Positions 1,130 through 38,142 are shown, counted from the stretch's first letter. The stretch: DNA of 64,000 nucleotides from Thermoplasmatota archaeon (GCA_029939595.1 JAOZSQ010000001.1:261722-325721); one strand, 5' to 3'. Notes: generated by a model not told the origin, from the sequence alone. Numbers and translations: made by a program.

Positions 1130-1909
1130 ATGCCTGTTACACAAAAACCGAGTCAATACTTTGGACATCGTAATTTCACAAGAAAATACCTTTTGGCGTT
1201 CATGACAAAAATGAATGATATTTTCATTGAAAGGTATAAAGGAGATGGAACGGTCCACAAGTATATCCGAGTACCCCTTCAATTTGCTCAAGCCAGCGTA
1301 CAATATAAAGCCAGCACTTCACAACAAACCATTAAAACATTTAATGATCTCAAAATTGAGATAGAAAATGTGCTTCCAAGAATGGCTGTTTCATTGACTG
1401 GTCTTGATATAAACACAGCGAAACAGTTAAACAAACATACCAGATTCAAAGGAGCAGCAGCAGAAAACCAAGTTGAAACCATGCCTTCTCCAGTGCCATA
1501 TACCATCTCTTTAGAAGTAACTGCAATCGCAAAATCAATGGATGATATCTTTCAGATCGTTGAACAGGTTATTCCAAGGTTCCGTCCAAGTCAAAATATC
1601 AATGTCAAAAATATAACTGGATATGATTCCGATTCACTAGCAATTACACTTAACAGTTTATCCTTTGATGTTCCAGAAGAATTATCTATGTTTGAGAAAC
1701 GGATGGTAACGGCTACTTTTGATTTTGTTATGGATGCGAATTACTATGCTATCAAGATTAATAAAGGTATTATTAAAACTATACAAACAGATGTTGGTTT
1801 AAAGACTGATGATTCATTTACCAAATTTAACCGATTTGTTTTAACTGGTGAGAATATTGAGACACCCGAAATATTTGATTTAAAGGTGGAGGTGCTACGT
1901 GAGGTTTAA
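1130..1909 (+). CDS. hypothetical late protein (possible neck/tail-completion component)
   Basis: 259-aa ORF with a ribosome-binding site and late promoter. It sits at the head of the packaging/tail operon. No motif was recognised; placement relative to T4 gp15 is by position only. Confidence 0.5.
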   Translation: MPVTQKPSQYFGHRNFTRKYLLAFMTKMNDIFIERYKGDGTVHKYIRVPLQFAQASVQYKASTSQQTIKTFNDLKIEIENVLPRMAVSLTGLDINTAKQLNKHTRFKGAAAENQVETMPSPVPYTISLEVTAIAKSMDDIFQIVEQVIPRFRPSQNINVKNITGYDSDSLAITLNSLSFDVPEELSMFEKRMVTATFDFVMDANYYAIKINKGIIKTIQTDVGLKTDDSFTKFNRFVLTGENIETPEIFDLKVEVLREV

Positions 1910-3107
1910 AGTGTTTTTAGAAAACTATCTTATTGAAGGATTGGGTGCGGTTAAACGGGACTTTTTGAATCCTGGAAAGATAGATAAAGATGATTTGAAA
2001 AGAATTAAGTTAGTAGGAGCCAATAAGGATCTATCAGCCGATTATACTGAATGGTTAGCTAAGTTTCTGGTGGACCAAGGATTTGCTAATTTGGGTAGAG
2101 CCAGTAGAGCGTTATTTACTAAAGATGTTTATGAAAGGATAAGGAATTTTGTTCGCCGGTTTGATGATTTGAGAAAGAAGAAGGCACTTAAAGGTGATCC
2201 TCCACATGGCAAGGAATTGGATGATTTGGAAGATTTTGTTGAACATGTTGAAAAGAAATACTACTCAAAACAAGAAATGAAGGTAAGTCCTAGACTTAGT
2301 AGAGGTCATGATTATGAGCGGGTTTATTTTGATAATGGAATTGAGGTGTTCAAAGTAATGACTCATGCAGCGATTAAAGAGATTGGTTCGGGAACGAAGT
2401 GGTGTATCACTCAAGATGATAAACAATATTGGTTTCAATATACAACAGATGAAGCAAAGTGTTTTTTTGTGATCAGAAATCATAAGTTAAATAGTAATAA
2501 TCCCTATTATAAGTTGGCTGTTGAGGTGACAGATGATGATAATATTTCAAACGTGTGGGATGCAGAGGATAATAATGATGAAATTACACATGACATGATA
2601 TCAAAAGCCTGGAAGATTCCAATGAGAATTTTTGAATGGTTTGATAGTAGTGAATGGGATCAGGATCAGTTAAAAGGGGAATATACTAATTTTGAGAATA
2701 CAATGAATGATGAATCTAATAGATATGAAGAAGAGCAGACTGAATGGTATGAAGAAAAGAAAAAGGAATATATAGAAAATTTTAAAAAAGAGTTAGCAGA
2801 GCCAGAAAAATATGAAGTAGATGAAGAAAGAAAAGAAAAACTTGAAAGGATGATAGAAGATGGATTGGATTGGGGTGATCTTCATGAATTATTGGATGAT
2901 GATGGTGAATATTTTGATGAATATTTTAATTTTGATCCAATGCCGGAACCAGAAGATCATTTAAAATCCTGGTGGGAACATAAAGAGGTTAGTGTTGATT
3001 CATCAATGGGTGATGATTGGATTGAGTATATATATGCTTTGCGAAATTATATAACAGGTGATGCTAGTGAATTTAGCGATTTACCTAATCCATATAATGA
3101 ATTTTAG
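1899..3107 (+). CDS. CTS-tagged cargo protein, 'GSGTKWCIT' domain family, acidic C-terminus
   Basis: N-terminus MRFKVFLENYLIE. Paralog of the 3115 and 32442 genes, sharing LGxVKRDFLNPGKIDKDDL...GSGTKWCITQDD. Start overlaps the previous stop. Confidence 0.7.
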   Translation: MRFKVFLENYLIEGLGAVKRDFLNPGKIDKDDLKRIKLVGANKDLSADYTEWLAKFLVDQGFANLGRASRALFTKDVYERIRNFVRRFDDLRKKKALKGDPPHGKELDDLEDFVEHVEKKYYSKQEMKVSPRLSRGHDYERVYFDNGIEVFKVMTHAAIKEIGSGTKWCITQDDKQYWFQYTTDEAKCFFVIRNHKLNSNNPYYKLAVEVTDDDNISNVWDAEDNNDEITHDMISKAWKIPMRIFEWFDSSEWDQDQLKGEYTNFENTMNDESNRYEEEQTEWYEEKKKEYIENFKKELAEPEKYEVDEERKEKLERMIEDGLDWGDLHELLDDDGEYFDEYFNFDPMPEPEDHLKSWWEHKEVSVDSSMGDDWIEYIYALRNYITGDASEFSDLPNPYNEF

Positions 3108-3114
3108 AGGAGTT

Positions 3115-37047: not shown

Positions 37048-37715
37048 TGAGATTCAAACAATTTTTGCAAGAATCACTTGCTTTTGTGAAAAAGAAAGCA
37101 GCCGATGGGGATATAAAAAGTGTTGGCGAATGGTTGGATTGTGATCCATCTGAAATAGATTTTAATTATAAATTAGAACCCATCACCAAATTTAAGAAAT
37201 CCATAGATGAAATGCAAGGAACTTATGATGAGTTCCCAAAAGATAAAAGAAGAACAGATAAGATTGTAAATGAGTTGAAAAAAGGTGGCAAACCATTGGC
37301 TATTTTTGTAGATCCAGAAGATAATTTTATTATGGAAGGAAGACATCGGATTGTTGGTTTTTGGATAGCTGGTTTGAAAAAGGTTCCGGTGTTTTATGTG
37401 AAGTGTAAAAAGTTAAAAGAATCTTATATTTCTCAAATTCCCAAATTAACCTTTAAGCCGGTTTCTGATTCGGTTTGGGAAACCATTCAGGATGAGGGAT
37501 TAGATGAAGAACAAAATAAACCTAATCGCCAAAGTTGGGAAATGGCAGAATTAAAAGTATCAACAAACGATCAAAAAATGTTGAAAGGATTTGATGATGA
37601 TACTTTGGAAAAATTCAACGATTTTGATATCAAATTGAAGGATAAATACAAATTAAAGTATATAGACCTCATAGACTACGATAAAGGGAAGATTACAATT
37701 GTAAGGGTATTTTAA
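37047..37715 (+). CDS. CTS-tagged ParB-like nuclease domain protein
   Basis: MRFKQFLQESLAF, and PLAIFVDPEDNFIMEGRHRIVGFWIAGLKKVPVF, which matches the ParB N-terminal-domain GxHR motif. Confidence 0.5.
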   Translation: MRFKQFLQESLAFVKKKAADGDIKSVGEWLDCDPSEIDFNYKLEPITKFKKSIDEMQGTYDEFPKDKRRTDKIVNELKKGGKPLAIFVDPEDNFIMEGRHRIVGFWIAGLKKVPVFYVKCKKLKESYISQIPKLTFKPVSDSVWETIQDEGLDEEQNKPNRQSWEMAELKVSTNDQKMLKGFDDDTLEKFNDFDIKLKDKYKLKYIDLIDYDKGKITIVRVF

Positions 37716-37722
37716 AGGTATT

Positions 37723-38142
37723 ATGGCAACATTTAAAGAATATCTTATTGAAGCAGATAAGAAATTAGAAAAGCTTGTTTGGGATTTTAGAAAAAAAGAA
37801 GAAAAAACTTGGGAATGGAAAACTGATAAACAAGCCATGAAAGGAATGTGTCAAGATATTACAAGACGTTTAGAAAAATATTTGAAAAAAAATGGGTATA
37901 AAGCAAATAGGGTTCCAGGTTATTATAAAGATGTATCGGATGATTTTGAACCAGAAGGAGAAAATTGGGATTTTGATGATTGGGAAGATTATAGAGAAAA
38001 TTTTGATAATAGTTGGACCCATTGGTGGGTCTTGGTAAATAATCGTATTATTGTGGATGTGACAGCAGATCAGTTTCATCTTGGAGAAGAAGATGAATAT
38101 CGGGTGGTTATAACGAGGAAGGGAGACAGAGATTACGATTAA
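37723..38142 (+). CDS. CTS-tagged cargo protein
   Basis: MATFKEYLIEADK. Confidence 0.6.
   Translation: MATFKEYLIEADKKLEKLVWDFRKKEEKTWEWKTDKQAMKGMCQDITRRLEKYLKKNGYKANRVPGYYKDVSDDFEPEGENWDFDDWEDYRENFDNSWTHWWVLVNNRIIVDVTADQFHLGEEDEYRVVITRKGDRDYD

Follow-up and report, generated by a model that had tools for sequence, protein, structure and literature searches.

The stretch of DNA analysed here is 64 kb long and is called the window in what follows (JAOZSQ010000001.1:261722-325721 of assembly GCA_029939595.1, deposited under the name of a Thermoplasmatota archaeon). It carries homologues of the phage T4 genes gp15, gp16, gp17, gp18 and gp19 in the T4 order, together with an array of genes whose products begin with the same short leader peptide. 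The order along the plus strand is gp15, two leader-bearing (tagged) genes, gp16, a GIY-YIG gene, two tagged genes, gp17, about 30 kb of array, gp18, two copies of gp19, and fibre-like proteins. The window has 33% GC and a strong coding-strand GC skew, and nearly all of its genes lie on the plus strand. Internal proteins (Ips) tagged with a capsid-targeting sequence (CTS) are textbook knowledge for the T-even phages, and our subject is the likeness of the shared leader to that sequence.

The leader and its carriers

Open reading frames (ORFs) in the window were scored by a six-frame scan and by ORF-by-ORF reading. On the plus strand, 34 ORFs carry the leader M-(I/K/R)-(S/T/G)-F-(K/R)-x-(F/Y)-(L/I)-x-E or a near variant of it: 33 lie inside 1899-38142 and one at 46191. 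The initial annotation had counted about 35 ORFs with a shared decapeptide start, a figure that our count bears out, with one gene beyond the range then given; its estimate of about 35 kb of tagged genes was too high, as the tagged genes encode 9,461 amino acids, or about 28 kb. Eighteen of the 34 leaders are canonical 10-mers (M-x-x-F-[KRI]-x-[FYH]-[LIF]-x-E), and seven are canonical 9-mers in which residue 3 is missing (M-x-[FY]-K-x-[FY]-[LI]-x-E, for example MRFKQFLQE). In another seven the Glu is shifted or the leader extended: those at 9933, 10868, 12067 and 12947 have FLEK and that at 19597 has FLEH, while those at 1899 (MRFKVFLENYLIE) and 3115 (MSFKKYINNLLNE) are 13 residues long and end in LIE and LNE, each followed by G, so that they align with the LIE-G of the paralogue at 32442. 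One leader is degenerate (14107, MIKLRDILKR) and one is internal (residues 20-29 of ORF 21170).

The motif is far more frequent than composition predicts and is nearly confined to N-termini. The 19,418-residue window proteome contains 20 copies of its strict core, F-[KR]-x-[FY]-[LI]-x-E, 19 of them within the first 11 residues, whereas 1000 residue shuffles of that proteome averaged 0.17 copies and never yielded more than 3; on the minus strand of the window it is found in no real ORF. Of the 34 copies in the alignment, 32 have Phe at position 4, one has Tyr and one has Leu; position 7 is Phe in 23, Tyr in eight, His in two and Ile in one; position 8 is Leu or Ile in 33; and Glu stands at position 10 (9 in the 9-mer class) in 26. 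The T4 CTS is MKTYQEFIAE, with which the window leader agrees position for position, as had been claimed. Amber-suppression mutagenesis assigned residues 4 and 7 of the T4 CTS to targeting and residues 8 and 10 to processing, in a phage whose Ip propeptides are 10-19 residues long (PMC9026906), and the window leader keeps those four positions as Phe/Tyr 4, Phe/Tyr 7, Leu/Ile 8 and Glu 10. Its end, F-L-x-E, also resembles the maturation site of T4 gp23, SFLTE/AEIGG.

What is conserved is the peptide. With the 34 sites aligned on the Phe codon, the first two codon positions of F4, K5, F7, L8 and E10 have a high information content and the third a lower one. The codon analysis was repeated mainly with a single gene from each paralogue family, plus a few divergent second members: leader Lys codons (17 AAA, 6 AAG) and Glu codons (17 GAA, 7 GAG) compare with window usages of 67/33% and 73/27%, and Leu is encoded by TTA 14 times, TTG 5, CTA 4 and CTT 2. 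Nucleotide identity averaged over gene pairs falls from 0.67 in the 30-nt leader to 0.30 over the 30 nt that precede it and 0.29 over codons 11-20; conservation stops abruptly after the Glu10 codon, and upstream of the tagged starts the shared element is a Shine-Dalgarno-like purine patch only. Because synonymous sites follow the codon usage of the window and identity drops on both sides, selection acts on the leader peptide.

The proteins behind the leader are diverse. All-against-all BLASTP places some of them in paralogue families A (four members), B (two), C (five), D (two) and E (three), the others being singletons, and the set as a whole comprises about 22 unrelated sequence families. 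Since these families are small and identity is at background past residue 10, the leader is the only similarity among unrelated mature proteins. Family A consists of 1899..3107 (GTG start) and 3115..4545, with the two extended leaders followed by G, of 32442..33401 (TTG start; (M)ITFKQFLIE, then G), and of a distant member at 24662..25747 (MISFKGFLNE). Family B is formed by 5523..6866, which contains leucine-rich repeats (LRRs) and has a GTG start and the leader (M)ITFKQFLSE, and by 6863..8206 (MITFKQFLSE; LRRs at residues 275-411). The genes of family C follow one another at 9933..10871 (MISFKLFLEK, Glu at position 9), 10868..12070 (MISFRLFLEK; product identical to P0001 of a 426,929-bp NCBI contig), 12067..12960 (MISFRLFLEK), 12947..14110 (MIGFKLFLEK) and 14107..15258 (the degenerate leader). 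In family D the leader runs directly into a further motif: MRYKQFLTE into IYHFT at 16948..17442, and MRFKQFLQE into LYHFT at 17439..17927. Family E comprises 22655..23113 (MISFIRFLKE), 27095..27661 (MISFKQHLEE, then ILYHGTT, with weak RNA 2'-phosphotransferase matches only) and 34477..34899 (9-mer MRFKQFLKE).

Several payloads can be assigned a fold or domain. The product of 15255..16337 (leader MIKFKDYLEE; PHROG 11974; invariant FYHGTS motif) belongs to the ADP-ribosyltransferase (ART) superfamily, having the ART fold with its NAD-binding His/Arg motif, and its closest structures are RNA 2'-phosphotransferase, Rhs TreX, PltA and heat-labile enterotoxin (LT). Searches of Pfam, PHROGs and NCBIfam gave no tagged protein a match to Alt, ModA or ModB, which are ADP-ribosyltransferases of the R-S-E type, so the likeness to Alt is a functional analogy only. 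Among 61 homologues of this protein, the closest carry a leader of 8-13 residues before a conserved LNEVFV.G core and the distant ones begin at the core; the leader is modular. The product of 19597..20292 (variant leader MKFSQFLEH) contains the Tad6 domain of type I Thoeris inhibitors (PF25188; 68.8 bits against a cutoff of 27; profile positions 19-145 of 145), a match also precomputed on a Logan contig (L223), and is by that domain a predicted Thoeris inhibitor. A GNAT acetyltransferase is encoded at 22290..22658 (MKPFKQFLRE), an ATP-dependent DNA ligase with adenylation and OB domains at 23110..23922 (MISFIQFLLE), and a protein with the head domain of CCA-adding enzyme / poly(A) polymerase and an RNA-binding domain at 27658..29073 (MISFKQYLIE), where an HD match is weak (19.5 bits, under Pfam's 22-bit cutoff).

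The remaining tagged genes are 16353..16946 (9-mer MNFKKFLIE), 23919..24665 (MISFKGFLNE), 26259..26747 (MKSFKKHLQE), 30852..31358 (9-mer MRFKQYIKE), 31355..32038 (MISFKDYFTE), 33398..34480 (MIGFKQFLIE, then FFHGC), 34892..35722 (MISFKNYLEE), 35709..36824 (MKSFKQFLKE), 37047..37715 (9-mer MRFKQFLQE), 37723..38142 (MATFKEYLIE), the outlying 46191..46973 (MKSFKQFLLE, with GATAAATA 32 nt upstream of the start), and two neighbours at 21170-22287 that bear signs of turnover. The first of these, 21170..22192, is a distant relative of family D that overlaps the upstream gene by 26 nt and has its leader inside the ORF (VPSFKQFLLE), with no start codon beside the motif; the second, 22189..22287, is a remnant ORF of 32 codons that holds little beyond its leader (MRFKNYLIE and 23 further residues). 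Two small untagged ORFs, 18885-19157 and 19166-19600, have leader-like degenerate N-termini (MKIKEMFENMLIE and MEPKKFFEKLLEH) that may be decayed or divergent tags.

A motif like Y-H-(G/F)-T stands directly after the leader in family D, 21170, 27095 and 33398. Profile-profile links of the ART-fold family to family D, 27095 and 33398 have probabilities of 8-64% and rest on the Y-H-G/F-T motif alone, so that kinship among them is suggestive only. Most tagged payloads have no match in Pfam, PHROGs or NCBIfam, and PDB profile searches with families A and C were empty; an AlphaFold model of family C, built on a seven-sequence alignment, had a pLDDT of 59.8 and was not used. Payloads reach 476 residues, and the tagged proteins are more basic than the untagged ones (median pI 8.9 vs 6.1). 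The cargo families to which a function can be assigned include at least one ART-fold enzyme, but most payloads have no recognisable function; the anti-defence repertoire of the initial annotation holds, by the payload profile searches, for the Tad6 protein alone.

Leader-bearing relatives

The leader is common in T4-like viral contigs: a search of IMG/VR with degenerate DNA patterns matched at least 120 stretches, and gp15-gp23 markers were also present in 28 of 94 short leader-bearing loci. The peptide is encoded differently across phages of 27-56% GC, and leader-bearing relatives carry gp21 and gp22. Other contigs have arrays of at least 5-6 tagged genes within stretches of 7-21 kb. In a closer relative, a contig of 167 kb and 27% GC (L224) whose terminase is 41% and whose sheath is 43% identical to those of the window, five tagged genes stand in a row between a gp14-like neck gene and gp15, with the T4 late-promoter octamer TATAAATA upstream of them; tagged homologues of 15255 and of family D are among the five.

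In some relatives the leader occurs on or beside head proteins. Two contigs (L107 and L158) encode, between the portal gene and gp21, an acidic protein of 125-142 residues that begins with the leader MKKFKQFLEE; in position and composition it corresponds to T4 gp67, which belongs to the prohead core and is cut by gp21. In another (L089), five tagged paralogues directly flank gp20-gp21-gp22-gp23; these five, at 143-11400 of that contig, are 230-249 residues long and rich in His/Lys motifs (HRN..., TSGKT). Cyanophage S-SM2 (L098), which has an annotated gp21, encodes a protein, SSM2_108, that reads MKTLKQFLKE followed by TPTNSVGNGGYTS and aligns with residues 54-85 of gp23, ...MIAE followed by QPTNAVGNGGYTS (BLASTP, 69% identity, E = 2e-12); in this alignment the leader Glu sits where the maturation Glu of the capsid protein is. 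SSM2_108 (3377-3805) is 142 residues long: its residues 7-38 duplicate the segment of gp23 (14851-16254) that spans the presumed maturation site, so that residues 11-38 correspond to the N-terminal end of mature gp23. The protein may serve as a decoy or as an accessory component of the head.

Genome context, promoters and untagged genes

The structural genes around the array are a gp15-like tail sheath stabiliser (1130..1909; phrog_227 at 1.5e-40), a gp16-like small terminase (4555..5121; a weak Pfam match, and 33% identity to its homologue in the closer relative), a gp17-type large terminase that lies untagged inside the array (8206..9936), a gp18-type tail sheath (41590..43848) and two gp19-type tail tube paralogues (49817..50986, as 49817-50365 and 50414-50986), all on the plus strand; the gp17, gp18 and gp19 homologues have PHROG matches. 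The gp19 copies are tandem duplicates, 44% identical to each other, and the late-promoter octamer precedes the first of them only. Between the gp16-like gene and the next tagged genes lies a homing-endonuclease-type gene of the GIY-YIG (LEM-3-like) kind (5114-5536). The large terminase is at most 36-40% identical to that of any isolate or IMG/VR contig, the best matches being Kyanoviridae (pelagiphage Mosig and cyanophages). The proteins of 10868-12070 and 15255-16337 are identical to database entries from the 426,929-bp contig, and a 10.96-kb Logan contig (SRR21545386 assembly) is identical to part of the window. Given the size of that contig, the T4-type genes and the terminase identity, the phage is, on its sequence, very large and belongs, as a distant member, to the T4 superfamily (Straboviridae, Kyanoviridae and relatives); a genome of 426,929 bp would be exceptionally large for a phage whose terminase, sheath and tube genes are T4-type. 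When 41000-64000 was compared with GenBank phages by megablast, nothing matched; an exact 48-mer from the right end of the window was absent from IMG/VR and GTDB genomes, the window contains no tRNA or Rfam family, and the portal was not seen in it.

Within the window the octamer TATAAATA lies 30-61 nt upstream of gene 720, gp15, gp18 and gp19: at 1092..1099 on the plus strand, 38 nt upstream of the gp15-like gene, at 41557 before gp18, and at 49756 before the first gp19. The array is gap-free and co-oriented and is preceded by the octamer at 1092; neither sigma-70-like promoters nor terminators are enriched inside it. Of 190 tagged ORFs in related loci, 11 have an octamer of their own 12-43 nt upstream.

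About 17 untagged genes are interspersed in the array, among them gp16, the GIY-YIG endonuclease, the large terminase and five genes for signal-peptide proteins; the others encode a few small cytoplasmic proteins. The untagged proteins with Sec or lipoprotein signal peptides are those at 26744, 29070 (VanY-like), 29687 and 39784 (SBP_bac_3) and 30385 (SH3-like). In the window the leader and signal peptides are mutually exclusive, and tail, terminase and secreted proteins lack the leader. The untagged terminase, endonuclease and signal-peptide genes mean that the leader is neither universal in the region nor carried by proteins routed elsewhere. At 26744-26992 and 29070-30852 lie a small lipoprotein, a VanY-like D-Ala-D-Ala carboxypeptidase, an SBP_bac_3 protein and an SH3-like protein, all without the leader. 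Also inside the array are two overlapping untagged paralogues, 17991-18455 and 18436-18876 (31% identity), which are Cys-rich (CxxCxxCC) and putatively chelate Zn or Fe.

Beyond the array, an untagged block of host-like genes for regulation and the envelope, at 38191-40533, encodes a patatin-like phospholipase (38191), an anti-sigma kinase of RsbW/SpoIIAB type (38895), a STAS anti-sigma antagonist (39440) and the lipoprotein-type SBP_bac_3 binding protein (39784). Plus-strand genes are missing over long stretches at 40533-41590 and 48393-49344 only, the GC skew dropping to about 0 at 40-42 kb; these two stretches hold minus-strand ORFs at 40593-40985, 40994-41425 and 48395-49069 that have no family matches. 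A further minus-strand ORF, at 1-633, runs off the left end of the window (MGLKYNEVFQKSSHNSYQKYESIPDQL...).

Probable capsid targeting, its alternatives and known systems

The leader is probably the CTS of this distant, very large T4-type phage and as such would load cargo that is injected into the next host; packaging, cleavage, injection and late timing of the tagged proteins are inferred from the sequence. We propose that the tagged proteins would be made during prohead assembly, when the amphipathic leader, with its aromatic residues at 4 and 7, would bind the scaffolding core and the protein would be enclosed as the shell forms. A prohead protease of gp21 type would then cut after (L/I)-x-E, at residues 8-10, and free the mature protein in the head, and at the next infection the cargo would be ejected with the DNA and act before any phage gene is expressed. 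The capsid-targeting reading had already been put forward in the initial annotation, and it is supported by the four residues shared with the T4 CTS, the T4-type genome, the conservation that ends at Glu10, the lack of the leader on tail, terminase and secreted proteins, its modularity, the gp67-position and S-SM2 cases, the basic character of the tagged proteins, the octamers before tagged ORFs of relatives, and the ART-fold payload.

Some observations weigh against it. Eight leaders are without the canonical (L/I)-x-E at residues 8-10, namely the four FLEK leaders of family C, the FLEH of the Tad6 gene, the two extended leaders of family A and the degenerate one; the two of family A do have L-x-E, at residues 11-13, and those of family C and the Tad6 gene have F-L-E. 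One leader, that of 21170, is internal. Profile scans of the 64-kb window found no gp21, gp22-type scaffold or capsid gene. DNA ligase and CCA-adding enzyme are classically cytoplasmic enzymes of replication and repair, not obvious cargo. The octamer at 1092 is the only canonical late promoter before the 37-kb array, so that late timing of the whole array is a presumption. The record of cyanophage S-SCSM1 labels virion proteins and its tagged protein (SSCSM1_30) is not among them, which for a protein of about 100 residues is uninformative. Lastly, AGT encodes Ser3 in 13 of 14 cases while its genome-wide share is 29%, and codons 2-3 are biased towards ATT AGT, so these two codons hold some DNA-level or shared-ancestry signal; the earlier claim that the codons vary synonymously under selection on the peptide and not the DNA is right for Lys, Glu and Leu, whose proportions track window usage, and needs this reservation for Ser3.

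The leader might instead target the prohead core and be cleaved there, with most tagged proteins then working within the head, as scaffold, in setting its size or in condensing the DNA, or being degraded in it, and not injected. The gp67-position core component of the relatives, the S-SM2 protein that shares sequence with the N-arm of the capsid protein, the basic character of many tagged proteins and the number of payloads without recognisable function are all consistent with such roles. An assembly role is nevertheless not plausible for an ART fold, a Tad6 domain, a GNAT enzyme, a ligase and a CCA-adding enzyme, while the roughly 22 families, with their fast turnover, remnant ORF and paralogue bursts, look like the cargo of an arms race, and Ip1-3 of T4 are all restriction inhibitors (PMC12373910); we therefore regard this alternative as unlikely.

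The 5' end might also matter as DNA or RNA, as a recombination handle for cassettes or a translation-initiation region, the peptide itself having no targeting role. Cassettes are tightly packed in this hyperplastic region, the leader codons are AT-rich, ATG ATT AGT is over-represented through the Ser3 bias, and the leader stands on enzymes that look ordinary. A DNA-level signal would not account for conservation at codon positions 1 and 2 with synonymous positions at genome usage, for a Glu10 kept by either GAA or GAG, or for the same peptide in different codons in relatives of very different GC; upstream conservation is limited to the ribosome-binding site, and highly expressed structural genes, like eight cytoplasmic genes of the array, have no leader. 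On the codon evidence we rejected this reading, to which we attach very little probability. Least credible is that the leader is some other signal with no part in capsid loading (a pro-peptide holding toxic enzymes inactive, a degron, or an address for some other compartment or binding partner), for although several payloads look potentially toxic (ADP-ribosyltransferase-like) and a protease-type site closes the leader, inhibition of 22 unrelated folds by ten residues is improbable, the conserved residues are exactly the four that matter in the T4 CTS, and the leader is confined to T4-type genomes, clustered beside head and neck genes.

A wider proposal, to which we would give about even chances, is that the leader is an ancient cargo-loading signal of the whole T4 superfamily and no peculiarity of the T-even phages, and that this phage pre-loads more than 30 proteins as an injected 'immediate proteome'. 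That proteome would consist of ADP-ribosyltransferases, a Thoeris inhibitor, tRNA- and DNA-repair enzymes, an acetyltransferase and LRR binders, would act ahead of all transcription of phage genes, and would show that whole enzymes can be delivered pre-made, for tRNA repair, DNA ligation, ADP-ribosylation and the inhibition of immune signals. To our knowledge very few injected phage proteins have been described; Ip1-3 and Alt of T4 are the textbook examples, and of these only the Ips have defined targets. A leader recognisable from sequence would let injected cargo be predicted from genomes, including those of ocean cyanophages and pelagiphages, and would help to track down injected effectors among thousands of uncultivated marine phages; in cyanophage, pelagiphage-like and other environmental T4-like contigs the tagged genes are annotated as hypothetical. 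It would also supply a candidate anti-defence set and a second natural tag for the engineering of protein delivery by capsids. As far as the searchable literature goes, the persistence of the leader far outside the T-even group, the presence of 34 tagged genes in one 64-kb window of a 427-kb genome, and whole enzymes as cargo appear to be new; a full-text search with the marine leader peptides SFKQFL, SFKEFL and SFKQYL found no paper with a phage context.

Among known systems the Ips of T4 are closest. About ten distinct Ips are reported across the T-even phages, all found through their leader; T4 has three, Ip1-3, which are restriction inhibitors (GmrSD) (PMC12373910). Like the tagged proteins of the window, they have an N-terminal leader of about ten residues with an aromatic residue at 4, Phe at 7, Ile or Leu at 8 and Glu at 10, share nothing else, are encoded in a hypervariable region of a T4-type genome and tend to be basic when mature. 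The window differs in its consensus (M-I/K-S-F-K-Q-F-L-x-E as against M-K-T-Y-Q-E-F-I-A-E), in having 34 genes where T4 has three, in payloads of up to 476 residues that include enzymes where those of T4 are small inhibitors, in the position of its array within the gp15-gp18 structural module, and in being known from genes alone. Alt of T4, a packaged and injected ADP-ribosyltransferase processed by gp21, is paralleled by 15255-16337, in which an ART fold follows a head-targeting leader that looks cleavable; the two have no detectable sequence relation, and the motif in the window is F-Y-H-G-T-S.

Assembly proteins of T4 offer a second comparison: the marine relatives have the leader on an acidic protein in the position of gp67, and F-L-x-E resembles the S-F-L-T-E/A of gp23 among the gp23/gp24 sites. 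Gp67 itself is an assembly component and not cargo, and begins MEGLIE without the full motif. The inner-body proteins of phiKZ, 201phi2-1 and SPN3US are a large set of head proteins loaded by means of N-terminal propeptides, which a T4-related protease cuts after Glu, and are ejected into the host, much as proposed here; they belong to another lineage, however, with propeptides of 80-130 residues and no shared short motif (PMC5694885), and with the cleavage motif (S/A/G)-x-E. Outside phages, the cargo-loading peptides of encapsulins are also short terminal peptides that are the sole common feature of diverse cargo, enclosed in a shell of HK97 fold; unlike the leader as interpreted here, they are usually C-terminal, bind the shell directly, stay uncleaved and serve no delivery to another cell.

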